A stretch of 43,437 nt of DNA from a virus. Its lineage: Duplodnaviria > Heunggongvirae > Uroviricota > Caudoviricetes. Both the position numbers and the translations under genes were made by a program. Location: the IMG/VR virus record IMGVR_UViG_2563366824_000005, positions 1 through 43,437 of that record. The stretch is one strand, 5' to 3'. The notes under the pieces are model-generated. The model saw only the letters and a list, made by a program, of their open reading frames with translations. It had not been told where the DNA came from and did not search any database. This document shows positions 1-43,437 of this stretch, piece after piece (the stretch's first letter is position 1; each line of letters starts with the position of its first letter).

Positions 1-309
1 TCACCCACGATTAACCAACAGCCAGACCAGCAGACACGCCACCACCGGCACAGCAAAATCCATCAGGCTTGCCACATCCCACGCGCGCGGATCAAAACCG
101 CCCCACCACGGCATATTCATTCGCTTGCCATGCCCGAACATTTCGATCCAGCGATATTCTGCCTGGGTGTGTTCACGCGCAATGAAGAACGTACAACCGG
201 CTATCGCCCCGTAAGCCCAGTTCCCGGTAAAAAGACCAATCAGTAGCTGCGCAGCCACAGCACAAAGCGCATGAAGGAAAGGTGTTATATCCATTTTCAT
301 CCCACCCAA
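1..309 (-). CDS. small multi-pass membrane protein of unknown function, moron-like gene downstream of tail-fibre genes
   Basis: ORF with stop at 1-3; candidate ATG starts at 309, 300 or 294; hydrophobic Gly/Ala/Trp-rich segments; lies directly after hairpin 311-332. Confidence 0.45.
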   Translation of the reverse strand: MGGMKMDITPFLHALCAVAAQLLIGLFTGNWAYGAIAGCTFFIAREHTQAEYRWIEMFGHGKRMNMPWWGGFDPRAWDVASLMDFAVPVVACLLVWLLVNRG

Positions 310-332
310 TAAAACGGGGCGCTCGGCCCCTT
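308..332 (-). terminator. putative intrinsic terminator after tail-fibre gene
   Basis: minus-strand GGGGC-CGA-GCCCC hairpin followed by GTTTTATT, just after the stop of ORF 337-1377. Confidence 0.5.
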
Positions 333-336
333 AATA

Positions 337-1377
337 TTATTTAGACGCAAGCGCCGCATCAATTGCAGATAATCTTTGTCTTAATTCTGCGTTTTCTTCT
401 TCCAGTGCTGTTATTCTGTCGTCTGACTCTCTGGCTACCTGAACAAGCAAGCCAGTAACACCAGAATAATCTACTGTGTAATAACGTTCACCTTCTTCAC
501 CTTCCGATCCGCTCGCACCGTCCTGATATTTCATTACGGAACCTACAACTTCTGGGATTGCTTCCAGAGCTTCCTGTGCAATGACACCAGCATAGGGCAT
601 ACCGTTTTCTTTAAGCGTGTATGTATAGCCGTTCATTTTACGGATGCGGTCGGTTGCATTATCGATCACCTGAATGTTGTCTTTCAGATCCCGGTCGGAA
701 TGCTGGTTAAATGCGGTGGCATGACATGCACCATTAACGCTTAACATATAGGTGTTATCGGTATTTTTCTGCGCATAGAACATATAAGCGCCACCATCAA
801 CACCGACTTCATAAACAACAGGACGGCTGGAGTTGCCCCACAATTGAGCAGTAACACCAGCATAAGCGGTTCCCTGTGTGTTTAATGTCATGGTTGACCC
901 ATGATTGGCATATTTGATCTGTAATGTGTCGGTGTAATCAAATTTAATAAGCGCGTTACTTCCACGCTTGCTGTATGACATAAGGCAGTTACCCATTTTG
1001 AGGTATCCGCTGTCACCGGGAAAAATCATCGTACCGCCATAAAGGTTGGTAAAGTCCCAGCAAATGTTTGTCCCGTTATCGTTCAGGTTAAGGCGCGCCA
1101 TTGCGTTACCTGGACTGTCTATCCATTTTTTGAGGTATAGTTCGCAATACGCATCCTCAACACCTGCCGTCCTGTGAGTTGAGCGGAGTTTTCTCCCAAA
1201 TATAGCTCCGCTAGTTGGTAATACCTGCTGATACCATGAAGCAGACCAGTCACCAACGATTTCATCTTTGCTGTCTACATATAATTTTGTTGCGTAGCTT
1301 CCTTGATCGTTTTTTAATTTGCTAACGTCGGATTTTAGCGTTTTGATGTCATCAGGAATTACTGTCGATGTAGCCAT
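337..1377 (-). CDS. tail fibre / receptor-binding protein with C-terminal intramolecular chaperone (peptidase S74-like) domain
   Basis: 346 aa; C-terminal segment HSDRDLKDNIQVID...GVIAQEALEAIPEVV plus coiled coil resembles auto-cleaving chaperone domains of endosialidase/T5-type fibres; recalled from memory. Confidence 0.55.
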   Translation of the reverse strand: MATSTVIPDDIKTLKSDVSKLKNDQGSYATKLYVDSKDEIVGDWSASWYQQVLPTSGAIFGRKLRSTHRTAGVEDAYCELYLKKWIDSPGNAMARLNLNDNGTNICWDFTNLYGGTMIFPGDSGYLKMGNCLMSYSKRGSNALIKFDYTDTLQIKYANHGSTMTLNTQGTAYAGVTAQLWGNSSRPVVYEVGVDGGAYMFYAQKNTDNTYMLSVNGACHATAFNQHSDRDLKDNIQVIDNATDRIRKMNGYTYTLKENGMPYAGVIAQEALEAIPEVVGSVMKYQDGASGSEGEEGERYYTVDYSGVTGLLVQVARESDDRITALEEENAELRQRLSAIDAALASK

Positions 1378-1386
1378 TTTTCTTCC

Positions 1387-1668
1387 TCACATCCAGCCAC
1401 GAAGTTGATGCTCAACAGCAACCACGTATTCATCGAATAATGACGATATTTGCGAATCATTAATGATGCGCACGTTTACAAAATATCCGTCTTCCTTAAC
1501 ACATACCGGTTCGCCATCTTCAGTTAGTTCTCCGGTTTCTTTGTACACGTTACCTATCACGTCAATAAGAATATCATCCTGCATCGACTCGTCATCATAA
1601 TAGCCAGTACTCTCCATAAAGGCCGAAAAGTCGGCCCTGTCGGCAAATTTGAGTGTTAAATCTTTCAT
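1387..1668 (-). CDS. hypothetical protein, possibly tail-fibre accessory/assembly protein
   Basis: 93 aa acidic protein; ATG overlaps stf stop (TAATG), suggesting translational coupling; no recognised family. Confidence 0.4.
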   Translation of the reverse strand: MKDLTLKFADRADFSAFMESTGYYDDESMQDDILIDVIGNVYKETGELTEDGEPVCVKEDGYFVNVRIINDSQISSLFDEYVVAVEHQLRGWM

Positions 1669-4040
1669 TAGATTGACTCCCCCACCTGAGCATCAGTCAA
1701 TGCCTTGTGCCATATTCTGAAATTCCTGACATGACCAAATAAATGACGTAACCCGGCTGTAGTCTGGCCTCCAATACGGATAATTGCGGTGTTCTGAATA
1801 CAGGACCATGTGGTTTTTGTTTCGCTGGATATATGCCCGTTACTTACTGAGCACGTAGACTGCTCTGACTTTACACGCATCCCCATAACCATTTTTTCAA
1901 GCGATGCGTTTTCGTTTACCCGTCTGTTAGCTCCTCCAATATCGCAATAAGGAAATCCGTCGTAATCTGTTGAACGACCGAAGCCAAGAATAATAGCCGC
2001 TCCGGTTTGATGACCGCCGGTATCAAAAACACGTGGCGCTGCATTTGGCGTTTTATACCAGTTCTTATGTACCTCACAAAGAACCGTAAAAGGAAGATTA
2101 TAAAGATTATTCTTAATTGGAACTGTAACTATATCGCTTGCGCGGGTCGCCGCCGTCGCTCCTGATATAATAAAAGATGATACACAAGGCCCATCTTCTA
2201 CTTGTGGGGTGGCCAGATAAATATAGTCACCAGATACGGTTGCCCCGCTCTGCTTAGGAGAATACTGTATCTGAGAGCCTATTTTAAACTCCCCATCAAT
2301 TGCCTGAATTGTTGCCTCTGCAAAAATCCATCCGGTAGCTTCGTCCTTTCTGACTCTCGCTGTAATTCTTGAGGCAGCACCGCCTGTCATATTAATTTCA
2401 AGCGTTTGTGTATCAATATACGCATCACCAAGAAAAGTTGTTGCGCTACCGTCATATTTATCAAACCGGATACGCAACCTTACCTGCAGTTCTGTTTTAA
2501 AACGACATGAGGTTGTCACGTGTTTATTATCGCCTGAGACATCAACTGACTTTGTTGCAGCAATTGATGCCATATTAATGGCTGAGGTTTGCCCAATCAG
2601 AGAATCGTTGCAGACAAACTTTCCATAGGTAAAACCAAAATTATCCGTCCCTGTTTCGGGCACATCCATATTTGACGATCGCCCCCAACTGGCAGGGCTT
2701 TCCGAATTGAGCATGTAGTTTGTTCTTTGCCCCTCAATAAGCAGGCCATCACGTTCAAATCGTGGCTCGTCAATGGCAGCCTCTGTCAGCACACCAGATT
2801 TGTTAATATAGGTTGCTTTCGATGCACGTTTAAACTTAACAATCTTGTCGCCAGGCATCGTTATTTCATCGTCACCAATAACAATTTTTTTATATGACGG
2901 CGAAAAGCCCGTAATCATATCCAGTGAATCGTTAAACGGTATCCACACATCAGGCAGTGGCTGTAAGACATATTTATACGGCTCTGCTGCCTGACTTGCA
3001 TACTCTCTGGCTGCGTCTTCACTTGCTTTAGCTGCTGTCTGGCTTGCTGCCGATGCTTTCGCCGAGTTCGCCGCTGCAGTCTCGCTTGTCTTTGCATTGG
3101 TTTCACTGGTTTTTGCCGCTTTTTGACTGTTGGCTGATGCAGTGGCAGAAGCAGCCGCCGCGCTTGCAGAACCAGCTGCCGCGCTCTCGCTTTGGGCTGC
3201 TGCAACCTGGCTGTTTTTCGCCGCAGTTTCGCTGGCTTTGGCATTCGTTTCGCTGGTCTTCGCTGCCGTCTGGCTGGACTTTGCGTTAGTTTCACTCGTC
3301 TTCGCTGCTTTCTGGCTGTTAGCCGCAGCAGTTGCTGCTCCAGCTGCTGAAGTCGCAGAACCGGCTGCTGCGCTCTCGCTCTCAGCTGCTGCAGTCTGGC
3401 TGTTTTTCGCCGCAGTTTCACTGGCTTTGGCATTCGTTTCGCTGGCCTTCGCTGCCGTCTGGCTGGACTTTGCGTTGGTTTCGCTCGTCTTTGCGGCTGT
3501 CTCGCTATTTTTCGCGTTGGTTTCTGATTTTTTAGCTGCTGTCGCGGAATTTGCCGATGCAGTCTGCGAGGCCGCTGCCGCCTGTGCGCTGTTAGCTGCA
3601 TTCGTTTCTGAGTTTTTCGCCGCGTTCTTCGATGATGCCGCTGCAGTTTCGGATTTCTTTGCCGCCGCTGCGCTCTGAGAGGCGGCTTCAGAGTTGCGTG
3701 CCGCTTCTTCCACCATTACCTCAAAACGACGCAATGCCTCCGGCATGACATCCTCTTCCGTCATGGCACCGAGAAAATCATTCAGCGTGCCTGGTCTGGA
3801 ACCTTCATAGACGGTAATGGTCCCGGCATGTGAAGGCGGAAAACCTTCAACCAGCAGGGTGACGCTGTACTGGCCATACTCAACATCCATGCTGTAACGC
3901 CCGGCTTCATCCGGATTTTCAGAGGCCACCGTATTCACCAGTACCGTGGTGCTGTTACGCTTTGCTTTGAGCTGAATAGTGCAGTTCTGTATTGGTTTTC
4001 CTGCACCGTCTTTCAGCACGCCTGAAATCTGTACTGCCAT
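1668..4040 (-). CDS. stf: side tail fibre protein (Stf-like) with Ser/Ala/Thr-rich repeat region and lectin-like C-terminal domain
   Basis: N-terminus MAVQISGVLKDGAGKPIQNCTIQLKA... matches lambda/K-12 Stf N-terminal domain; start taken at third Met of track ORF; C-terminus ends ...FGHVRNFRIWHKALTDAQV (LamG/concanavalin-like pattern). Confidence 0.8.
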   Translation of the reverse strand: MAVQISGVLKDGAGKPIQNCTIQLKAKRNSTTVLVNTVASENPDEAGRYSMDVEYGQYSVTLLVEGFPPSHAGTITVYEGSRPGTLNDFLGAMTEEDVMPEALRRFEVMVEEAARNSEAASQSAAAAKKSETAAASSKNAAKNSETNAANSAQAAAASQTASANSATAAKKSETNAKNSETAAKTSETNAKSSQTAAKASETNAKASETAAKNSQTAAAESESAAAGSATSAAGAATAAANSQKAAKTSETNAKSSQTAAKTSETNAKASETAAKNSQVAAAQSESAAAGSASAAAASATASANSQKAAKTSETNAKTSETAAANSAKASAASQTAAKASEDAAREYASQAAEPYKYVLQPLPDVWIPFNDSLDMITGFSPSYKKIVIGDDEITMPGDKIVKFKRASKATYINKSGVLTEAAIDEPRFERDGLLIEGQRTNYMLNSESPASWGRSSNMDVPETGTDNFGFTYGKFVCNDSLIGQTSAINMASIAATKSVDVSGDNKHVTTSCRFKTELQVRLRIRFDKYDGSATTFLGDAYIDTQTLEINMTGGAASRITARVRKDEATGWIFAEATIQAIDGEFKIGSQIQYSPKQSGATVSGDYIYLATPQVEDGPCVSSFIISGATAATRASDIVTVPIKNNLYNLPFTVLCEVHKNWYKTPNAAPRVFDTGGHQTGAAIILGFGRSTDYDGFPYCDIGGANRRVNENASLEKMVMGMRVKSEQSTCSVSNGHISSETKTTWSCIQNTAIIRIGGQTTAGLRHLFGHVRNFRIWHKALTDAQVGESI
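3000..3700. repeat. tandem repeats of about 189 bp inside stf, encoding AAKTSETNAK-type repeats
   Basis: motif ctgtttttcgccgcagtttc recurs at 3211 and 3400 (189 bp apart) with flanking near-identical sequence; more diverged copies on either side. Confidence 0.7.
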
Positions 4041-4098
4041 ATTCACTCCACAAATAAAAAAGGCGCCATTTCTGGCGCCCGTATTTGGGTTATAAAAC

Positions 4099-7000
4099 TC
4101 AACTGATACTGATACCGGCTGTTGATTTCTTCATCACGACAACAAGAAGGTCGCTGATACTGGTCGTTGGCGTCCAGTTATTAGCACCATATGAAGAAAC
4201 ATTGAAAGTCAGGGTGACATGACCGTGTCCGGCAGGCATATCAATGACGGATGAAAATACCCTGCTGACATCCGTCGCGGGTTGCTGAAAGATTTCCTGT
4301 CCGTTCTTCAGCACCTGCAGCTTACAGGTTGAATACCAGTATGACTGTTGGTTATTGCTGTTGAAGTTTTCATGCTTACCACCGTGAAACAGAACGGGTG
4401 GGATTACTATCTGACGGTCAAAAGCCTGGTCATCGTACACAGTGACCGTAATTGTACCGCTGGCATAACTGCCATTTCTCGGAAAGGCTTTTCCCACCGT
4501 TTTGACAATATCACCTTCAATCTGGTTGGCAGACAGTTTTCCCAGAATCCGACAGTTCTGGTTAATCGTGACATTATTGAGCGTCCCGGAGTTCGCATTC
4601 ACGTTACCGCTGATATCGGCATTTTTCGCCGTCAGCCGCCCGTCCGGTGTCAGGGAAAATACCGGCGGATTGCCGCCACTGGTAATGGTGGGAGCCGTCA
4701 GATACTTCAGGAACACTTCGTTCATGAATATCTGGTTACCCTGCGCCACAAACATCGGAGTTTCATTCCCGTTTGCCGGGTCAATAAACGCGATACGGTT
4801 AGCGGCAACCAGGAACTGGCTCAGTTTACCTTCCTCCGTATCCTCCATACTAAGGCCAAGCCCCGCGACATAATGCCTGCCGTCTTCGGTCTGCTCAATT
4901 TTGACGCCCCACATGGCATTCCATTTATCGTTGGCGTCCTTCCACTCTTTCGAAAACTCCTCCAGTTTGCTGGCGTTATCCTCCGTCAGCTCGACTTTTT
5001 CCAGCAGCTCCTTGCCGAGATGGGATTCGGTTATCTGGCCTTTGAAAAAATCCAGGTAACCTTCCGCATCATCGCTCGCCCGACCGACAGCCTCCACGAA
5101 TGTCGATTTGCCGACGGTGTTCACACTGCGAACGTAAAAATAATAATCATGACCCGGCTTAATATTGATACTGGCAGCTATCCAGTACAGCGCCGTGCCA
5201 AGATAGCGGGCTGTGGTTTCAACCTGCCTGATATCCGCAATCCGCTTTTCCGAGAACCAGAACTCAAACTGTACCGTCGGATCATAAACGGCAAGATGCG
5301 GCGTGGCGGTTATCTGAAAATAGCCCGGCGTCAGCTCAATCCTCGACGGCGCTGCCGGTGCGGCAATCCGGAACGATACCGATGCCGGATCGCCCTGCTG
5401 CCCCCAGGCATTTGCCGCCCGGACTGTCAGTCTGTAGTTCCCCAGCGCCAGTTGCGTGAAACGGTATGTGGTTTCCGTCGTCCTGGCCGTGCTGACCAGC
5501 CGCTCACTGCCGTCATCCGCTGCCACGGTCAGGCGAAGCATAAAGCTCACGCCCTTCACCACCTTCGGTGTGTCCCAGCGCGCCAGCACCTGATATTCCC
5601 CGCTGTCTGCAGTGACTTCTGCGGTCAGGTGCTGCACCGCTGGCGGCGTGACACCATTCACCGTGCCACTCTGTTCGCCGTCAAAGTGCGCCCCGTTATC
5701 CACGATGGCCTCTTTTTCCGGCACATGCTGCACGGCGGTGATGGCATACGTGCCGTCGTCGTTCTCACGGATACTCACGCAGCGGAACAGTCGCTGGCGC
5801 AGCGTCGGCAGCTTCAGCCCCCATACGCTGTATTCAGCAACACCGTCAGGAACACGGCTCACTTTTACCTTCACGCCGTCGGTGACGGACTGAACCTCCA
5901 CGCTGACCGGATTGCCACTTCCGTCAACCAGGCTTATCAGCGTGGTACCGGAGGATGGCAGCGTGATTTCACGGTCGAGCGTCAGCGTCCGGGTCTGGCT
6001 GTTCACCGCCAGCACGCGACCACCGGTGCTGATACCGGCATAGTCATCATCGCAGATTTCAATAACATCGCCCGGCACATGGCGAAGCCCTTCTGCGCCC
6101 ACGCTGAAATCCACGGTCTGCGTTTCCAGCAGTTCCGTTTTAATCAGCCACAGCCCGGCGCGGTGTGCCTGCCCCCGGCTGGTACAGCCAAAGGCATCCA
6201 TCTTCGTGACATTACGACCGTAACGGGCAATGGCCTGCGTATCTTCAACAAGCTCTGTCGCCGTCTCCCAGCCGTTGTTCGGGTCAATCCAGTTCACCTC
6301 AACGGCATTATGGCGGTCCTTCAGGGCGCTGAAGCTGTAGCGGAACGGCGCGCCATCATCCGGCATCACCACATTACTGCGGTTATAGGTCCACACCTTA
6401 TCCGACGGTCGGTCCTGCACGAACGTCAGCGTCTGTCCGTTCCATACCGGCATACAGCGCATCGCCGAGCAGAAATCACTGAGCACATCCCACGCCTTGC
6501 GCTGTGTGGTCAGGTACGCATTACAGGTGATGCGCGGCTCCGTGCCGCCAAAGCCGTCCGGCACTGACTGGTCGCAGTACTGGCCGATGACATACAGCGC
6601 CCATTTGTCCACATCCGCCGCACCAAGACGTTTCCCCATGCCGTAGCGCGGGTGGGTCAGCATATCCCACAGACACCAGGCCATGTTGTTGCTGTATGCT
6701 GGTTTTAACGTTCCGTCCCAGATACCGCTGTATTGTCGCGTCTGCGGGTTATAGTTCGACGGCACCTGCAGAATGCGCCCGCGAAGATGATAATTACGGC
6801 TCACCTGCTGGCTGCCGAACTGCTCCGAGTCCACCTGTACGCCGACCAGTGCCGTGTTCGGGTAGCACTGTTTCACATCGATGATCTCGGTGTATGACGA
6901 CCAGAGCGTTTTGTTCTGCAGCTGGTCTGTGGTGCTGTCCGGCGTCATCCTGCGCATCCGGATATTGAACGGGCGCGGCGGCAGGTTATCCACCACCACC

Positions 7001-7497
7001 GAGGCCAGATACTGCGAGGTGGTTTTGCCCTTAATGGTGATGTCTTTTTCCGTCACCCAGCCACCGTTACGCTGTATCTGAACCAGCAGGCGGACTTCCG
7101 ACGGATTCCTGTCTCCCTTTGAGGTGGTTTCCACCAGTGCCTGTACACCGAAGGTAAAGCGCAGACGGTCGATGTTTGCCGACGTGATGGTCCGGGTGAT
7201 CGGCGTTTCATATTTCACTTCCGTACCGAGCACCGTCTCGGAACCGGAGGATTCAAATCCCTCCGGCGGTGTCTGCTCCTGCTCACCTGCCCGGAACACC
7301 ACCGTGACACCGGAGATGTTGGTATTCCCCTCACTGTCCAGCACCGGTGTACTGTTCAGCAGCACGCTTTTTAATCCATCCACCGGACCTTCAATCGGCC
7401 CTTCGCTGATGGCATCGATCACACTCAGCAGCTGCGTGGATTTCAGGTTATCCTTCGCTTCGCGCGGGGTATGCCCCTTACTGCTGCCTTTACCCAT
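4099..7497 (-). CDS. J: tail tip host-specificity protein J
   Basis: 1132 aa, same length and gene position as lambda J. Confidence 0.9.
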
Positions 7498-25465: not shown

Positions 25466-25930
25466 TTATCTGAGGCATTGCTCTCGAATGTATAGCTGTG
25501 CCCCTTCAAGTTGTTTTTGCATTATTATCAGTCGCGCTCTGAGGGTGAAATAATCCCGTTCAGCGGTGTCTGCCAGTCGGGGGGAGGCTGCATTATCCAC
25601 GCCGGAGGCGGTGGTGGCTTCACGCACTGACTGACAGACTGCTTTGATGTGCAACCGACGACGACCAGCGGCAACATCATCACGCAGAGCATCATTTTCA
25701 GCTTTCGCATCAGCTAACTCCTTCGTGTATTTTGCATCGAGCGCAGCAACATCACGCTGACGCATCTGCATGTCAGTAATTGCCGCGTTCGCCAGCTTCA
25801 GTTCTCTGACATTTTTGTCGCGCTGGGCTTTGTAGGTAATGGCGTTATCACGGTAATGATTCAGCCCCAGACTAAGCGCACCACAGGCCACCAGCAGGGC
25901 AATGATGACCACGCACAGTACGCGGTTCAT
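25466..25930 (-). CDS. Rz: i-spanin Rz
   Basis: 154 aa with N-terminal TM segment and coiled-coil; lambda Rz-like. Confidence 0.8.
25528..25710 (-). CDS. Rz1: o-spanin Rz1 lipoprotein, embedded in Rz in +1 frame
   Basis: 60 aa with lipobox LVVVGC and PPPPP tract; near-identical to lambda Rz1 as recalled. Confidence 0.75.
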
Positions 25931-25931
25931 T

Positions 25932-26069
25932 TCACCACCAGCGTATCTGACCGATGAAATAACCAGAGGCCATAATCACAAACACCAGCCAGATAAGAAT
26001 GAACTTCCAGGTGGATAATTTTTCAGCCATCACTCGAATCTCCCGAATCAGTTTGCTAAAATCAAACAC
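25932..26069 (-). CDS. candidate small membrane protein (45 aa, GTG start) immediately upstream of Rz
   Basis: AAGGAG SD 5 nt before GTG at 26069; in-frame ATG at 26030 gives 32 aa; C-terminal hydrophobic helix [20 protein letters not shown]; stop overlaps Rz start (TGAAATG); below track length cut-off. Confidence 0.3.
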
Positions 26070-26105
26070 ACTTTCTCCTTTGACTTTTCCGGAGTCAGGA
26101 AACAC

Positions 26106-26139
26106 AAAACCCCGCTTGGTGCCAACAAACGGGGTTTTT
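26106..26139 (-). terminator. hairpin with U-run between endolysin and Rz (possible terminator or attenuator)
   Basis: minus strand CCCCG..TTGG/CCAA..CGGGG stem followed by TTTTGTGTTT. Confidence 0.35.
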
Positions 26140-26228
26140 ACTTTTATTCACTTACGTTTCGCCACTTCGCAGGATTTCATGTTATCCGCCCGCGTGGCCA
26201 TGCCTTATTTTTCAGCAAAATATTCTGC

Positions 26229-26762
26229 TTATCTGTCGATACCCCAGCACGCCAGCGCGCTCTCCTGGTCACGACGGGATACCTGACCGTAGCAGTTGTT
26301 TGAACGAATACGGCAGTCTCTGCCACCGTCCTTAATCCACCAGCGAATCGCCTCACACGCTCCCCTGCGATCACCTGCATTAATTCGTTTATAAAACGTC
26401 GACGGGAAACACTTACCGGGACCAATGTTGTACGGACAGAATGACGCGATCCCCGCTTTCTGGGGTTCGCTCAATGGCACTTTGATGTTTTTCTCCACCC
26501 ATGCCAGCGCCTTATCACGCTCAATGGCGTTGACCTGGTCGCATTTTTCCTTCGACAGTTTCATACCGGGAAAAACGGGTTTTCCATCCACCATCGTGGC
26601 CCCCCGACAGATGGTCCAGTTGCCGGAACCATCGCGGTATGCCGTAGTGTGGTTACCCTCTTTTTCATCCAGAAACTGGTCAAGTATCTGAGGAGCTGAT
26701 GCGCCTGCTCCAATCAGCGCCAGAACTGCAGCTGACAGGCCGTATTTGATTTTTGCGTTCAT
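26229..26762 (-). CDS. SAR endolysin (GH24 T4-type lysozyme with N-terminal signal-anchor-release domain)
   Basis: 177 aa; Gly/Ala-rich weakly hydrophobic N-terminus; catalytic spacing E-x8-D-x5-T in ...EKEGNHTTAYRDGSGNWTI... Confidence 0.85.
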   Translation of the reverse strand: MNAKIKYGLSAAVLALIGAGASAPQILDQFLDEKEGNHTTAYRDGSGNWTICRGATMVDGKPVFPGMKLSKEKCDQVNAIERDKALAWVEKNIKVPLSEPQKAGIASFCPYNIGPGKCFPSTFYKRINAGDRRGACEAIRWWIKDGGRDCRIRSNNCYGQVSRRDQESALACWGIDR

Positions 26763-26867
26763 GGATATTTATCAGGATTTATCGGTTTCTGAACCCTGGA
26801 TATGTTTATCTGTCCCGGCCTGTTGAATCAGGCGGGGAAAAGGTAAAGACAATCAAGAGGATTATTT

Positions 26868-27140
26868 ATGGACAATAGCACCATTTCTCTACAGGAGTTG
26901 CTCGACTGCATTTCCAGGCTTCGGGATGATGTAAATGCCCTCACTGTTGCATTTTCACATCTGGCCTTATCAATTCCCAGGGAGCAAATGCTGCCAACGC
27001 TGGCATCCATTCATTTTGAATCACGCAACCCCAAATGGTCCCAGGAACAACAAAATTCTTTCAAGTGGCTGGCGGCATTGCTGGAAGAAAATTATGCTGG
27101 CAAAACTACCATTTCGGCGGAGTCTTCAGGGAACCAGTAA
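26868..27140 (+). CDS. hypothetical protein on the strand opposite the lysis genes, convergent with the ydfR-like gene
   Basis: 90 aa ORF; AAGAGGA SD about 7 nt upstream of ATG; 3' end overlaps ydfR-like gene by 35 bp; no recognised family. Confidence 0.4.
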   Translation: MDNSTISLQELLDCISRLRDDVNALTVAFSHLALSIPREQMLPTLASIHFESRNPKWSQEQQNSFKWLAALLEENYAGKTTISAESSGNQ

Positions 27141-27450
27141 TCCTTCCCGGTAGCTTTCCTTTGTAGGTTATCCATACATTCTGCGCCTCTAAAATTACGG
27201 GGCGCTTTTCCGGCGACTGCTCATCCCCTTCACATAACCCGGCAGCGACATCCAGGAAGACCTGTCTGATGCTCCTTCTGGCCGCTGCCTCATAAAACTC
27301 CAGCGCAGCACCTTCAACACGGTCCAGCGAGATGTCCAGGTCAAAAATTTCACCGTCAAAGCGTTCTTTGTCCTGTAATGCTAAAGTTACCGTAACTTTA
27401 TTCTCAAAATTGCGGATCCCTTTCACAATCAGTTCATAGTTTTGAGTCAT
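27106..27450 (-). CDS. YdfR-like protein (DUF1327) between holin and endolysin
   Basis: 114 aa MTQNYELIVKGIRNFENKVTV...; same position as ydfR in K-12 Qin; GGGGAGAG SD. Confidence 0.6.
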   Translation of the reverse strand: MTQNYELIVKGIRNFENKVTVTLALQDKERFDGEIFDLDISLDRVEGAALEFYEAAARRSIRQVFLDVAAGLCEGDEQSPEKRPVILEAQNVWITYKGKLPGRITGSLKTPPKW

Positions 27451-27454
27451 TGAA

Positions 27455-27670
27455 TTACTCTCCCCGTGCCGCCTTACGACGGTCCTCTCTGATTTTGAAA
27501 TACAGGTTAGTCAGATATGTCAGCAGCCCAAACAGCAGACTCCCCAGCACGCCTATTGCCGCCCACTGAGACGGGGAAACCCTGTCCAGCAACTGCAGGA
27601 ACCAGTAGCCCGTTCCCACCGCTGACGTGGTGTATGACACACCTGTTGTGATTTTTTCCATCTGGTCCAT
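27455..27670 (-). CDS. class II pinholin (phage 21 S-type) with dual-start motif
   Basis: 71 aa [10 protein letters not shown]...[40 protein letters not shown], close to P21 S21 as recalled; Met1 and Met4 give the antiholin/holin pair; track ORF extended upstream. Confidence 0.8.
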
Positions 27671-27977
27671 ACCCCGTCTCCCGTTATCCGGAAGCTGAAA
27701 ACAATAAAAAAGCCACCAGTTAACTACTGATGGCTCTGATAACTCATGCAAGCGTCTCAGACGACCCACTGACACTACCGGTGAGTTTAACGATACCTTC
27801 CATTTGACTGGCTCACTTTTTATGATGATGCCGGTGCATTTATCTCCAGCGCCAGACTTTCTATCTCAACGCCATACGTTACATTTTTGGTAATATCCAT
27901 CAGCGTCAGTGCATTTAGTCCCACTGCCAGACTGTCTTTTATGGCCTGGAATGCCGGGCCAGTACGATGACGTAGTA

Positions 27978-30075: not shown

Positions 30076-30897
30076 TTACCTAGTTACCTTTTTTAACTGC
30101 CGCTCAGCCCATGCTTCTTCAATATCAAACCGGGTCACCAGCGCATCATAGAATTTCTTAACTGTTTTTTCCCATGACGCGCGTGTTATCTGGTTTGTCA
30201 CCTCGCATATAGCATTAAATGCCTCCGTTGATGGTAGCCTTTCATAGCCACGACCACCACAACGCTGGCAGTCTCTGATAACAGGCATACCACGTTTTAC
30301 CGACTCTTCACGATGAATGGCGACACCACGCCCACGGCAATCCTTACAGGCGGTGGAAACCTCACCCTTCCCGCCACACTCCGGACAGGCAACTTTTACC
30401 ACCTCCCTGACTTTTTTCCATTCTTCCCAGTAAGACGGATACACACCTTTCGTACACTTTGCCCATACCGGCGGCTTACCATCCGGATACTGGACCTTGT
30501 TTGTAAAAACTACGCTTTCAATAAATTTTTCCCCATAGCAACAAGGGCACAGCTTTTTACTCGCTGCGCTGCGGGCATAATCCTCAAAAGCGCACGAAGC
30601 CATAATGCGCATCACTACCGGTTTTATTTCTGCCGGAAGTTTTCTCAACGCCGCCACACGATCGCACCGACTGAGTGCATAATCTGCCAGTAATTCTGTT
30701 GCCCGCGCCCTGTCATTCATACTAATGCCCATCTTCCCCAGGAACGCAGAAAACCCCATCTCAGCCCGATTCTGTGTCATGCCCTGCGCGGCCATCACAT
30801 CAGTGATACTCAGCGCATCTTTTGACGTTGAGGCCGATGCATCGGTCAGGCAAGGGGATTTTGGGGAGTAGTATTTCGGTAAATCTTCCAGTTTCAT
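30076..30897 (-). CDS. late-gene antiterminator Q-like protein (Qin QuuQ-type)
   Basis: 273 aa with paired CxxC motifs; positioned between rusA and the late promoter/tRNAs. Confidence 0.75.
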   Translation of the reverse strand: MKLEDLPKYYSPKSPCLTDASASTSKDALSITDVMAAQGMTQNRAEMGFSAFLGKMGISMNDRARATELLADYALSRCDRVAALRKLPAEIKPVVMRIMASCAFEDYARSAASKKLCPCCYGEKFIESVVFTNKVQYPDGKPPVWAKCTKGVYPSYWEEWKKVREVVKVACPECGGKGEVSTACKDCRGRGVAIHREESVKRGMPVIRDCQRCGGRGYERLPSTEAFNAICEVTNQITRASWEKTVKKFYDALVTRFDIEEAWAERQLKKVTR

Positions 30898-42412: not shown

Positions 42413-43437
42413 TGGGAAGACGAAGGAAAAATCCTGAACACGAAAAATTACCTCCAAATGTATACCCAAATAAATATAGTTATGTATGGAAACCAACATC
42501 CAGAGAATCTGTAACACTAACCGCCATCAAGGATGGTTTAGCTGCTTTATGGAAAAAGTATGAGGAAACTGTAAATAATCGCGATCGTGCAATGACATTC
42601 GGTCGCTTGTGGGAAAAATTCCTCGCCAGCGCCTATTACAGTGACCTCAGTCCAAGAACACAAAAAGATTATCTGCAACATCAAAAAAAGTTGCTTGCCG
42701 TATTCGGTAAGGTGCCGGCAGATTCCATAAAACCAGAACACATCCGTCGATACATGGACAAGAGAGGGGAACAGAGTAAAACGCAAGCCAACCATGAAAA
42801 AAGCAGTATGTCCCGCGTTTACAGTTGGGGGTATGAGCGAGGGTACGTGAAGGCTAACCCATGTGCAGGTGTAAGTAAATTCAAGGCCAAAAACCGCGAA
42901 CGATATGTAACCGACAAAGAATACCAGGCAGTATTAAGCGTTGCACCTCTTCCTGTTTTTATCGCAATGGAAATTGCCTATCTGTGTGCAGCGAGGGTTT
43001 CCGATGTGTTATCGCTGAAATGGGAGCAGATTGGAAACGACGGGATCTTTATCCAGCAAGGGAAAACAGGAAAAAAACAGATAAAAGCATGGAGTCCACG
43101 ATTACAGGCGGCGATCGAAAAAGCAAAACAGTTACCAACATCCGCCTATGTAATCAGCAATCAATACGGCAACCGATATATGTACAAAGGCTTTAACGAA
43201 ATGTGGGTAGAAGCAAGAAATCGCGCAGGCAAAATTTCAGGTATTTTAACCGACTTCACCTTTCATGATCTGAAGGCGAAAGGAATTTCAGACTATGAAG
43301 GAAGCAGTCGGGATAAGCAACTTTTCTCTGGTCACAAAACCGAGGGGCAAGTGCTAATCTATGACAGGAAGGTTAAAGTTTCACCGACACTTGATGTCCC
43401 GTTACCTGAAAATATTCCAAGAAAATATTCCAAGTAA
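42412..43437 (+). CDS. int: tyrosine integrase (lambda Int family)
   Basis: 341 aa; N-terminus MGRRRKNPEHEKLPPNVY resembles lambda Int MGRRRSHERRDLPPNLY; C-terminal catalytic region; ends at window edge. Confidence 0.85.
   Translation: MGRRRKNPEHEKLPPNVYPNKYSYVWKPTSRESVTLTAIKDGLAALWKKYEETVNNRDRAMTFGRLWEKFLASAYYSDLSPRTQKDYLQHQKKLLAVFGKVPADSIKPEHIRRYMDKRGEQSKTQANHEKSSMSRVYSWGYERGYVKANPCAGVSKFKAKNRERYVTDKEYQAVLSVAPLPVFIAMEIAYLCAARVSDVLSLKWEQIGNDGIFIQQGKTGKKQIKAWSPRLQAAIEKAKQLPTSAYVISNQYGNRYMYKGFNEMWVEARNRAGKISGILTDFTFHDLKAKGISDYEGSSRDKQLFSGHKTEGQVLIYDRKVKVSPTLDVPLPENIPRKYSK

Follow-up and report, generated by a model that had tools for sequence, protein, structure and literature searches.

The window analysed here is the whole stretch of 43,437 nucleotides of tailed-phage DNA, a lambda-like prophage. 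At its left edge, a short minus-strand open reading frame (ORF) ends exactly at window base 1 (stop codon at 1–3), and its immediate upstream neighbour is the gene for a 346-aa S74 tail fibre. The features on which the following analysis draws are:

1–294, minus strand: coding sequence of a 97-aa, predicted three-helix inner-membrane protein (PHROG 1443 / UniRef 'Ybl63'), from the ORF, profile, homologues, AF2 model and dN/dS
295–309, minus strand: translation-initiation region, with GGGTGGG at 301–307 and the alternative starts, from profile alignment and homologue N-termini
308–330, minus strand: weak intrinsic-terminator-like hairpin GGGGC-CGAGC-GCCCC at 316–330, followed by GTTTTATT at 308–315, from scan and fold
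337–1377, minus strand: short tail fibre, 346 aa, with a C-terminal Peptidase_S74 intramolecular chaperone (PF13884, E 4.8e-14; phrog_4563, E 6e-220)
1387–1668, minus strand: 93-aa protein of PHROG 1361, after stf, from profile match and related loci
1668–4046, minus strand: side tail fibre, Stf-like, 792 aa, with Ala/Ser/Thr-rich repeats, from ORF translation and relatives
4061–4080, minus strand: stronger terminator-like hairpin (8 bp, then TTTTTATTT) between J and stf, from scan
30076–30897, minus strand: Q-like late antiterminator, which heads the late unit (phrog_127, E 6.5e-109)

The profile phrog_4563 is annotated as tail fiber, and the Stf-like gene is annotated as a lambda stf homologue in phage Tritos and matches PF08400 (phage_tail_N) in close relatives. 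In phage 21 and in 12 of 80 related loci, the gene next to the membrane ORF on its upstream side is that for the PHROG 1361 protein instead of a fibre gene. After Q, the late unit runs through holin (27455–27775), endolysin, Rz, terminase and tail genes to the ORF; the window's own holin, endolysin and Rz together occupy 25466–27775.

Three in-frame starts are possible, namely TTG 309, ATG 300 and ATG 294. The likely start is the ATG at 294 (292–294), yielding a 97-aa product, because the PHROG 1443 profile aligns from its Met (residue 3 of the 99-aa form is profile position 1) and homologues begin MD(I/L)(T/S)P. The purine-rich GGGTGGG (307–301) is found 6 nt 5' of this ATG, and most relatives in the set of 80 related junctions carry GGGTAGG at the equivalent site. 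The alternative starts, ATG 298–300 and TTG 307–309, are probably not used.

Wherever synonymous sites could be measured, dN/dS was 0.13–0.17 (about 0.15); between genera these sites are saturated, yet the proteins remain ~60% identical. The family comprises 575 homologous clusters, with 434 representatives at the 50% identity level, and has 433 matches in IMG/VR. Given the low dN/dS, the saturated synonymous sites and the hundreds of homologues, the ORF is, on comparative grounds, a genuine and strongly conserved gene rather than a chance reading frame, and its family is under purifying selection. At 54.8%, its G+C content stands apart from the 44.3% of the adjacent fibre gene and the 41.8% of the second upstream gene.

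Junction with the fibre gene and transcription

On the minus strand, GGGGCCGAGCGCCCC (330–316) followed by GTTTTATT (315–308) is located between the stop of the S74 fibre gene (337) and the ORF. The resulting hairpin is weak, with a 5-bp stem, an interrupted U-tract and a folding energy of -14.8 kcal/mol, for which the z-score against shuffles is only -0.77. Among the 80 related junctions, all of which come from close E. coli relatives, it is one of three junction types, present in 32 and absent from 48; in 48 of the 80, the ORF is joined to the upstream gene by 5–10 nt with a strong AAGGAGG. The 42-nt spacer upstream of the ORF in the window is wholly taken up by the hairpin and the ribosome-binding site (RBS). 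No promoter was detected at the ORF, and promoter-like matches in window positions 1–4200 were no more numerous than expected from shuffling.

All late genes from Q through the ORF lie on one strand. Moreover, the stronger J/stf hairpin is inside this late operon, indicating that hairpins there do not delimit transcription units. Since the late genes share one strand, no promoter is seen, the hairpin upstream of the ORF is weak and often missing and a stronger one sits inside the operon, the ORF reads as the last cistron of a Q-antiterminated late operon, rather than as a demonstrated independent unit. RNA polymerase modified by Q would read through the weak hairpin and transcribe the ORF in the prophage, and expression in the lysogen is possible.

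A first-pass annotation of this DNA had described the gene as a moron lying beyond a terminator hairpin at the distal end of the tail-fibre genes. The ORF does follow the last tail-fibre gene and a hairpin is present, but the weakness of this hairpin and its absence from most related junctions leave that part of the description only half standing. Nothing in the window bears out an independent moron unit, as there is no room for a promoter and none was detected; this lack of a promoter, named in that annotation as evidence against its reading, is indeed what the window presents at the sequence level. Of the classical moron features, an own promoter is missing, while a distinct G+C content and presence or absence among similar phages are found. 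The further idea that the ORF might open a cargo block fails as well: in near-identical genomes it is followed by a truncated tfa remnant and then by opposite-strand genes (a pin-like invertase, ynaE and dinI; or a diguanylate cyclase; or sitABCD), with no co-oriented block. Prophage predictors often cut the boundary exactly at the stop codon of the ORF, so that the gene looks like a left-edge orphan and what lies beyond it is hidden.

The absence of a promoter from tightly coupled late genes, seen in the window and in most lambdoid, P2-like and myoviral contexts, predicts late rather than lysogenic expression. We therefore considered whether the product could be a lytic-cycle membrane protein, made only late together with the fibre genes and not in lysogens, as a lysis-timing or holin-associated regulator or as a protector against superinfection during the latent period. 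This would fit the position of the ORF as the last, promoterless cistron of a Q-dependent operon, and also the overlap or abutment of its start with the upstream late gene in phiHAP-1, Leclercia, Comamonas and ACP1. In epsilon15-like phages, and in prophages of Comamonas, Acidovorax and Pantoea, the lysis cassette comes directly after the family gene; in Comamonas L005, the ORF overlaps by 4 nt a multi-TM gene, behind which lie genes for an SLT-like endolysin and an Rz-like protein. The family gene is also intact in large phages that are presumably virulent. However, lambdoid, P22-like and epsilon15-like carriers already possess complete holin/endolysin/spanin sets, either adjacent to the gene or at another site, and separate holin-like genes are present where the lysis cassette comes after the family gene. 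The family also has near-invariant polar motifs, which holins are not known to show across host phyla, and of 92 diverse members compared with Pfam a single one gave a weak holin-family match (Phage_holin_8, E 0.0036). Together with decay of the gene in virulent T1-like phages and stable chromosomal copies without phage genes (see below), this makes a lytic-cycle role unlikely.

Conserved residues, predicted topology and searches for relatives

The exact protein sequence is present in public collections as PHROG 1443, UniRef 'Ybl63' and SEED FIG00639861, labels that carry no functional information. The ORF product is a full-length member, with residues 3–98 aligning to positions 1–96 of the 97 in the PHROG 1443 profile (E 6.2e-59). 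Searches of Pfam, NCBIfam and PADLOC, a PDB sequence search and a fold search revealed no relative of the 97-aa protein. When 92 diverse members were compared with Pfam at E values up to 10, scattered chance matches were obtained and nothing consistent; a few members weakly matched the PhoR N-terminal TM hairpin. No profile match was found to known exclusion, immunity, conversion or defence families (T4 Imm, SieB, Cor, colicin immunity, PADLOC), nor to tail-fibre assembly chaperone families in Pfam or PHROGs. The GtrA Pfam family was matched neither by the query nor by the 92 members, and hhalign comparisons with P22 GtrA and with epsilon15 gp22 and gp23 gave probabilities of at most 0.5%. The only fusion partner in the family is DUF5658, also uncharacterised, and no fusion to a catalytic domain occurs; literature searches returned no paper on either family. 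The Tai/Ati tail-assembly-interference systems, which sit upstream of the module for packaging (PMC11364771), are unrelated.

Kyte-Doolittle 19-residue means reach 1.8 at residues 3–24 and 2.3 at residues 76–94, and a further, shorter hydrophobic stretch spans residues 26–39. The AF2 model (mean pLDDT 91.9) contains helices at 4–23, 26–53 and 74–96. All 92 diverse members share E41 and W72, and H8, R40, Q44, A45, E46 and P83 are conserved in at least 90%. Helix 1 thus contributes H8 to a near-invariant polar signature, the end of helix 2 contributes R40-E41-x-x-Q44-A45-E46 and helix 3 D79 and P83; W72 completes it. The spacing of these residues does not fit the motifs of CPBP proteases, PAP2, MAPEG, FTR1 (REXXE), DgkA or VanZ. 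A lipobox is absent, as Cys11 lies in the context H-A-L-C, where Leu at -1 is unsuitable, and C11 is not conserved in the family.

On average, family members have 0.05 K/R residues in the turn between helices 1 and 2 compared with 5.3 in the 40–73 loop. From this we infer a topology with the N-terminus in the cytoplasm, the 24–25 turn in the periplasm, the conserved 40–73 loop in the cytoplasm and the C-terminus outside, in which the conserved residues would form a single site at the cytoplasmic face of the membrane. The protein of about 100 aa with several hydrophobic segments reported by the first-pass annotation is thus recognisable in a 97-aa product with three predicted helices, and its assignment to no recognised fold family agrees with our Pfam, NCBIfam, PADLOC, PDB and fold searches. 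Of the checks suggested there, topology prediction yields a small multi-helix inner-membrane protein and the homology search leads to the uncharacterised PHROG 1443 only.

This architecture recalls that of E1-type pore-former immunity proteins, which have a similar size and a three-helix inner-membrane build, and an orphan immunity-type protein that benefits the lysogen against a membrane-active toxin (pore-forming colicin, tailocin or similar bacteriocin) would also be in keeping with the prophage-end location and the high prevalence in E. coli. We consider it very improbable, as no immunity family for colicins or bacteriocins in Pfam or NCBIfam matches it, none of the contexts examined has a toxin gene close by, and the family reaches sphingomonads, Comamonas and marine phages of Halomonas and Cobetia, for which toxins of the colicin type are not expected. 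The conserved residues are, in addition, polar and interfacial and not at intramembrane helix-packing positions.

Placement after receptor-binding-protein genes and chromosomal copies

Phage copies of the family gene are nearly always immediately downstream of a receptor-binding-protein (RBP) gene or of its chaperone gene, whatever the tail morphotype. This holds for lambdoid, T1-like, P2-like, P22-like, epsilon15-like and multi-tailspike phages and for a prophage with a DGR. The gene follows the tailspike gene in P22-like Gally (Lederbergvirus) and in epsilon15-like phiv142-3 and EC.W1-9 (Uetakevirus), and lies between tailspike or fibre genes in a Salmonella prophage, Cobetia phage Carin-5 and Aeromonas jumbo phage ACP1. 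In a Leclercia myovirus prophage, the stop of the S74 fibre gene at 6000 abuts the family gene start at 6001. It also adjoins RBP genes in Comamonas prophages and in an SSU5-like phage-plasmid, and in the Ideonella DGR prophage it is located between an unannotated gene at the DGR target (Mtd-like) position and avd. For the most abundant cluster, at least ten encoding contigs are copies of one context.

Nearly the same protein (at least 95% identity) sits behind different fibre genes, and the family gene accompanies unrelated RBP folds (beta-helix tailspikes, Stf, the gene at the DGR target position). Lambda-like phages occur both with and without it. The comparison of these loci shows that the family gene moves as the 3' end of RBP-gene cassettes, since nucleotide homology of the ORF region to other phages breaks at the start codon and a truncated tfa remnant follows the ORF in relatives. 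In P2-like phiHAP-1, the family gene is placed between the tail-fibre assembly gene and sheath gene FI; this corresponds in position to the P2 hot spot between fibre-assembly gene G and FI, which holds the T5-exclusion gene Z/fun. The ORF start overlaps the upstream gene in phiHAP-1, so that it is not an independent unit there, unlike a classical moron.

The proposal that conversion or exclusion genes often sit at such a site gains from the comparison with P22 and epsilon15, whose relatives carry the family gene in the tailspike-distal conversion slot. The P22 order is tailspike-gtrCBA-attP-int and that of Gally tailspike-ORF-int; likewise, epsilon15 has tailspike-[wzy-beta, alpha-polymerase inhibitor]-gp23-holin, and phiv142-3 has tailspike-ORF-gp23-like-holin, EC.W1-9 being equivalent in this slot. 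P22 gtrABC and epsilon15 wzy-beta and gp22 (Iap-like) thus occupy the same genomic slot as the family gene in related phages, they too encode small or polytopic inner-membrane proteins, and a terminator after the tailspike gene is common to P22, epsilon15 and the family-carrying relatives. In Gally, a strong 9-bp terminator is followed by ~180 nt of AT-rich leader with promoter-like hexamers, an RBS and the ORF, which, judged from these elements, is textbook moron anatomy. There are also differences. The family gene is on the tailspike strand, whereas the P22 and epsilon15 conversion cassettes are on the opposite strand and the P22 gtr operon has its own annotated promoter; it lacks the glycosyltransferase or polymerase partner of these cassettes, and its product has no sequence or profile similarity to GtrA, gp22 or gp23.

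The position immediately 3' of RBP genes, often directly after S74 fibres, is the usual slot of a chaperone, and the product might accordingly be a tail-fibre assembly or attachment factor, i.e., a chaperone anchored in the membrane and needed by the fibre or tailspike encoded upstream. However, known Tfa-type chaperones are soluble, whereas this protein is a predicted integral membrane protein. T1-like virulent phage HC6 and at least seven related virulent-type phage records carry a frameshifted remnant of the family gene behind an intact S74 fibre gene, and this retention of the fibre beside a mere remnant suggests that the gene is dispensable for lytic growth and fibre assembly. The occurrence of the same protein with unrelated RBP folds and of homologues on non-phage chromosomes also speaks against a chaperone, and S74 is an intramolecular chaperone that needs no separate factor (Pfam PF13884 description). 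An assembly role is thus extremely improbable, and the conserved tail-assembly protein that would have contradicted the moron reading is not what we find, even though the gene is a companion of fibre genes.

Members of the family occur in alpha-, beta-, gamma- and delta-proteobacteria. Several Aeromonas species have a fixed chromosomal locus without phage genes, in which the family gene has lipid A late acyltransferase genes as opposite-strand neighbours. Devosia and Sphingomonas humi carry it among kps-like capsule genes (KpsF, KpsU, KpsD-like, KpsS/C-like). Other chromosomal neighbourhoods are heterogeneous (ligA, ftsZ, thiC, urt). An Aeromonas neighbour that had been considered as a Kdo/LPS kinase is a genuine RIO1-type kinase, and the LPS link was dropped. 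Such chromosomal copies suggest that the family may be useful to cells without a phage. In complete E. coli genomes, the family was present in 1906 of 5426 (~35%), with a median of 2 copies.

These chromosomal copies raise the alternative that the protein is a small membrane enzyme of host type, or an accessory subunit, with housekeeping duties in the envelope; its substrate at the cytoplasmic leaflet could be, for instance, a lipid-linked sugar, a Kdo-glycolipid or a phospholipid. The phage copies would then be general lysogen fitness genes, with no connection to phage resistance, that came to adjoin fibre genes by hitch-hiking. The enzyme-like invariant polar cluster, the fixed Aeromonas copies by the acyltransferases, the kps-like clusters, the spread over four proteobacterial classes and the same protein behind different fibres all favour such an enzyme. 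At 97 aa, however, it would be smaller than any well-established membrane enzyme known, DgkA (121 aa) being the usual lower size bound. Catalytic-domain fusions are lacking, most chromosomal neighbourhoods are mutually unrelated, and strict post-RBP placement in more than 10 phage lineages is hard to explain by hitch-hiking alone. We therefore hold a host-type enzyme to be unlikely.

A candidate factor acting on the host envelope

The explanation that we favour, albeit tentatively, is that the family encodes an accessory inner-membrane protein tied to RBP-gene cassettes, which would act on the host envelope and bring about exclusion or conversion. The protein would be a moron-type factor and neither a virion component nor part of the assembly pathway. 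Its target would most likely be a conserved component of the membrane that it binds or modifies, whether a lipid-linked glycan precursor or a membrane protein through which phages enter. In this way, the surface receptor would be altered or masked, or superinfection of the phage-carrying or phage-replicating cell would be blocked. We count against this explanation the lack of homology to known exclusion or conversion proteins, the intact copies in large virulent-type phages and the heterogeneous chromosomal neighbourhoods.

Among known systems, Cor (phi80, N15, HK022) and Llp (T5) are outer-membrane lipoproteins that block FhuA; they are encoded beside receptor-binding genes, travel with them and are accessory rather than virion components. 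Compared on these features, the family shares the RBP-adjacent, co-travelling position with Cor and Llp, but its protein has no lipobox, is predicted to be in the inner membrane with a conserved loop facing the cytoplasm, and does not co-vary with the adjacent RBP. The presence of the same protein behind different fibres argues against a receptor-specific blocker of the Cor/Llp type. Nor would a protein that encounters an arriving tail tip on the periplasmic side be expected to have its conserved site facing the cytoplasm, as the topology model predicts here.

T4 Imm, HK97 gp15 and P22 SieA are small phage inner-membrane exclusion proteins, some proteins of this kind being morons inside tail-gene regions (discussed in PMC3594210 and PMC10883804). 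Like the predicted family protein, all three are small integral inner-membrane proteins of phages, but the family gave no Pfam, PHROG-annotation or PADLOC match to them. We know of no reported chromosomal homologues of these three proteins with invariant polar motifs across proteobacterial classes.

A more far-reaching version, which we regard as quite doubtful, is that the family represents a widespread class of exclusion or conversion factors, in which a minimal three-helix protein with a site at the cytoplasmic leaflet (H, RExxQAE, W, D, P) remodels or masks glycan receptors. What such a site binds or modifies would be a universal intermediate of the envelope, for instance an undecaprenyl- or Kdo-linked glycolipid, or else the machinery handling this intermediate. 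Siphoviruses, myoviruses and podoviruses would all carry the factor along with RBP cassettes, and it would have been domesticated by cells too.

The ORF is therefore a good, though unproven, candidate for a new factor of phage exclusion or surface conversion. The family has no name, Pfam family or literature, despite its presence in ~35% of complete E. coli genomes, usually in at least two prophages, and behind RBP genes in phages of Salmonella, Leclercia, Aeromonas, Comamonas, Halomonas, Cobetia and Ideonella. If it does alter receptors or block entry, it would be among the commonest prophage-encoded barriers to phage infection in Enterobacteriaceae, with consequences for serotype variation and for predicting host range in phage therapy. 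Should it prove a tiny membrane enzyme or regulator instead, its invariant motif and its 97 residues would make it an attractive minimal model.

The ORF and its place in the late operon

The ORF at the left edge of the window lies on the minus strand, with its stop codon at bases 1-3, and has three in-frame start candidates (TTG 309, ATG 300 and ATG 294). We took ATG 294 as the probable start, because the PHROG 1443 alignment begins at that methionine, homologues from other genera start MD(I/L)(T/S)P, and a purine-rich GGGTGGG (307-301) sits 6 nt 5' of it. The product from this start has 97 aa: MDITPFLHALCAVAAQLLIGLFTGNWAYGAIAGCTFFIAREHTQAEYRWIEMFGHGKRMNMPWWGGFDPRAWDVASLMDFAVPVVACLLVWLLVNRG.

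Genes preceding the ORF in the window
4099-7497, minus: J
1668-4046, minus: Stf-like side fibre
1387-1668, minus: 93-aa acidic protein (PHROG 1361, a label without a function), between Stf and the 346-aa fibre
337-1377, minus: short tail fibre of 346 aa with a Peptidase_S74 (S74) chaperone domain, the upstream neighbour of the ORF

The 93-aa protein is always found 3' of the Stf gene, at the expected position of a Tfa chaperone; it gave no Pfam or NCBIfam match and may be a new type of fibre chaperone. Within the Stf gene, long repeats rich in Ala, Ser and Thr (AAK(N/T/S)SETNA type) give rise to long spurious ORFs in other frames or on the other strand (2915-3601, minus; 3130-3678, plus). The lom gene, present in close relatives, is absent between J and stf.

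A 42-nt spacer separates the fibre stop (337) from the ORF start and contains a 5-bp G+C hairpin (330-316) followed by GTTTTATT. The first-pass annotation had described a small membrane protein with several hydrophobic segments behind a hairpin, distal to the tail-fibre genes, and all of this was correct. Its interpretation, a moron behind a terminator that might open a cargo block, was right about what sort of gene this is and what sort of site it occupies, but held neither for the terminator-moron unit nor for the start of a cargo block, as detailed below.

All late genes lie on the minus strand from the Q-like antiterminator gene (30076-30897) through to the ORF, in the order Q, holin, endolysin, Rz, small terminase, head and tail genes, J, stf, the two small fibre-associated genes and the ORF. 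Inside this operon, between J and stf, lies another terminator-like hairpin (4061-4080, minus; 8-bp stem followed by T5ATTT, TTTTTATTT), which is stronger than the weak one preceding the ORF (local fold of -14.8 kcal/mol, z-score of -0.77 against shuffles). Since Stf is a virion part and yet is encoded 3' of the 4061-4080 hairpin, the hairpins of the late operon must be read through, as expected of a Q-modified polymerase from established lambda biology. Moreover, a scan of the window revealed no promoter-like site from the hairpin to the ORF, and promoter-like matches in 1-4200 equalled the shuffled expectation. Because the late genes share one strand, the hairpins are read through and no promoter-like site was found, the ORF is best read as the final cistron of the late operon rather than as an independent transcription unit in the window, and would be expressed by read-through.

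We surveyed the same junction in 80 related E. coli viral contigs. The hairpin was present in 32, and two hairpin-free types (12 and 36 loci) carried a strong AAGGAGG within 5-10 nt of the upstream stop. The gene upstream of the ORF was the 346-aa S74 fibre, a 234-aa S74 variant or the 93-aa gene. The hairpin is part of the 346-aa fibre cassette and not of the membrane gene. With no promoter and a late-operon position, the reading of a terminator followed by a moron is unsupported in the window.

Each end of the window coincides with a stop codon, that of the ORF at base 1 and that of the integrase at 43437, and many IMG/VR contigs, including L104, L108, L116 and L118, stop at the same base after the ORF stop codon. 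The left edge thus reflects prophage prediction rather than biology, and the prophage actually ends outside the window, where the tfa remnant, the pin-like invertase, ynaE and dinI lie. In near-identical genomes the ORF is directly followed by a C-terminal remnant of the tail-fibre assembly gene tfa, beside a pin-like invertase (5871-5990 in phage Tritos, L001; 7862-7981 in comparison locus L003). Next come, on the opposite strand, either the invertase with ynaE and dinI, a diguanylate cyclase, or, in phage 21 (L002 1460-4909), the iron/manganese transporter operon sitABCD, which there lies directly past the membrane gene; an E. coli genome matching the window at 100% has the diguanylate cyclase at the position of sitABCD. 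This position is a variable cargo hot spot. The late strand ends with the ORF, which does not open a co-oriented cargo block, given the opposite-strand genes past the tfa remnant. The remnant shows that an older stf-tfa end gave way to a fibre cassette whose last gene is the ORF, and its position beside the invertase suggests that the present cassette displaced part of an older stf/tfa segment that was invertible.

A widespread family beside receptor-binding genes

The ORF is a real gene. Its dN/dS was 0.13-0.19 wherever dS could be estimated against homologues from phage 21, the P22-like phage Gally, Leclercia, Salmonella, Comamonas and Aeromonas; between genera, synonymous sites are saturated, yet the proteins remain ~60% identical. 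A word-indexed search gave 575 homologous clusters, each of ~95-105 aa and every one labelled hypothetical, while an exhaustive profile search gave 434 family representatives at the 50% identity level, of which the best 150 are all stand-alone proteins of 58-142 aa. Among 5426 complete E. coli genomes the gene occurs in 1906; the median copy number is two, the maximum seven. PHROG 1443 is its sole family assignment; the identical protein appears in public collections as 'Ybl63' and FIG00639861, names without content, and our literature search found no paper mentioning it.

The family is linked to cassettes for receptor-binding proteins (RBPs). Nucleotide homology between the window and many other lambdoid phages ends at the ORF start codon, and in the phage contexts examined the family always lies directly 3' of an RBP gene or RBP chaperone gene, with Aeromonas phages 62AhydR11PP and 4_4512 standing outside this classification because their neighbouring genes are unannotated.

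Position of the family in phage genomes
Lambdoid siphoviruses: 3' of RBP gene or its chaperone gene
SSU5-like phage-plasmid: 3' of RBP gene or its chaperone gene
P22-like Gally: follows tailspike
Epsilon15-like phiv142-3 and EC.W1-9: follows tailspike
P2-like phiHAP-1: flanked by fibre-assembly gene and sheath gene
Leclercia myovirus prophage: abuts 939-aa S74 fibre gene
Salmonella prophage: flanked by two tailspike genes
Cobetia phage Carin-5: flanked by RBP genes
Aeromonas jumbo phage ACP1: flanked by two fibre-like genes
Comamonas prophages: follows J and fibre genes
Ideonella DGR prophage: flanked by unannotated gene at the DGR target (Mtd-like) position and avd

In the Ideonella dechloratans megaplasmid prophage (L178 4001-4594), the family (residues 1-95) is fused to DUF5658 (residues 108-189) in a 197-aa protein, located between the gene at the DGR target position and two avd/reverse-transcriptase pairs. 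DUF5658, an uncharacterised membrane domain, may be a membrane module of related function that also sits beside RBPs. In two Comamonas prophages (L005 6300-7521; L027 5491-7036), an unannotated lysis-like cassette lies 3' of the ORF. It encodes two multi-TM proteins, a protein of 183 aa (PHROG 3108, 'unknown function') that contains the SLT-like motif GLQESRF, and an Rz-like protein, which combines a coiled coil with a TM segment at its N-terminus.

Predicted topology and possible roles

The AF2 model, built from a 26-sequence alignment, was confident (pLDDT 91.9, pTM 0.76), with helices at 4-23, 26-53 and 74-96 and a loop at 54-73. Close relatives share the near-invariant stretch AREHTQAEYRWI..FG.GKR.NMPWWGGFD.R.W. 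In a set of 92 diverse members, E41 and W72 never vary, conservation reaches at least 90% for H8, R40, Q44, A45, E46 and P83, and D79 is conserved in 84%; this degree of conservation is unusual among phage membrane proteins. Lys/Arg residues average 0.05 in the turn between helices 1 and 2 versus 5.3 in the 40-73 loop, and by the positive-inside rule the N-terminus and conserved loop are predicted to be cytoplasmic and the C-terminus periplasmic. On this topology H8, R40/E41/Q44/E46 and D79/P83 would all lie at the cytoplasmic leaflet and could form one putative site. Searches of Pfam, NCBIfam, PADLOC and PDB sequences gave no family or fold relative.

The neighbourhood resembles known conversion loci. 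The serotype-conversion cassettes of P22 and epsilon15 are experimentally established. P22 has the order tailspike, gtrCBA, attP, int, and its relative Gally has tailspike, ORF, int; epsilon15 has tailspike, O-antigen polymerase with alpha-polymerase inhibitor, gp23, holin, endolysin, Rz, int, and in its relatives phiv142-3 and EC.W1-9 the tailspike is followed by the ORF, a gp23-like gene, holin, endolysin, Rz and int. The family thus fills an established serotype-conversion slot in two genera. In Gally the ORF is preceded by a strong 9-bp terminator and a 180-nt AT-rich leader that contains promoter-like hexamers and a good RBS, the textbook moron layout, and in phiv142-3 a terminator-like hairpin likewise separates the tailspike gene from the ORF. 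In behaviour the ORF resembles the conversion and exclusion genes beside RBPs (gtr, the epsilon15 conversion genes, Cor, Llp and P2 Z/fun); the homology tests run against known genes of this kind were all negative, with no sequence relationship to GtrA or to epsilon15 gp22 or gp23. We file it as an uncharacterised accessory membrane protein at an RBP-distal hot spot; that it is an orphan bacteriocin-immunity protein seems very improbable.

The virulent T1-like phage HC6 carries an intact 859-aa S74 fibre gene followed by a frameshifted, shortened and unannotated remnant of the ORF (L081 3965-4159). At least seven further phage records, including ST1UNAM, ZCEC08, HC8A, PBM-2 and PBM-3, match in the same way in unannotated DNA (residues 41-93, 43% identity), the remnant itself having been inspected in HC6. 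This is evidence that a virulent phage took its fibre cassette from a temperate one; the accessory gene arrived along with the fibre and was lost afterwards. Decay behind an intact fibre gene speaks against involvement in assembling the fibre or in lytic growth; as counter-evidence, large, probably virulent phages keep intact copies with all signature residues between fibre genes. A fibre-assembly factor is the reading we find hardest to credit. A membrane function late in the lytic cycle, to which the tight coupling to late genes, the adjoining lysis cassettes in Comamonas and epsilon15-like phages and those intact copies all point, we hold to be unlikely.

Family members also occur in chromosomal, non-phage loci. 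Several Aeromonas species share the order pirin, ORF, RIO1 kinase and two lipid A acyltransferases, and further copies occur in Leclercia, Silvania and many alphaproteobacterial loci. In Devosia and Sphingomonas humi the family lies among kps-like capsule genes (KpsF, CMP-Kdo synthetase, a Wza/KpsD-like exporter and KpsS/C-like transferases). The remaining chromosomal neighbourhoods are unrelated (ligA, ftsZ, thiC, PBP1A), so that a connection with surface polysaccharide is no more than a lead. That the gene encodes a host-type envelope enzyme or subunit and is carried for general fitness is rather doubtful, if a little easier to accept than a late lytic function.

The explanation we tentatively prefer, at somewhat less than even confidence, is an accessory inner-membrane protein. 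Its conserved cytoplasmic-face site would act on a conserved membrane component, and the outcome would be an altered surface receptor or the exclusion of a superinfecting phage. A conserved intracellular or intramembrane target is favoured over a receptor-specific blocker of the Cor/Llp type because an almost unchanged protein is found behind different fibres, family members from E. coli, Aeromonas and Comamonas are 60% identical, and the conserved site is predicted to face the cytoplasm. The gene is mechanistically unremarkable, yet it is an unusually widespread and conserved unknown with a sharp, testable positional association.
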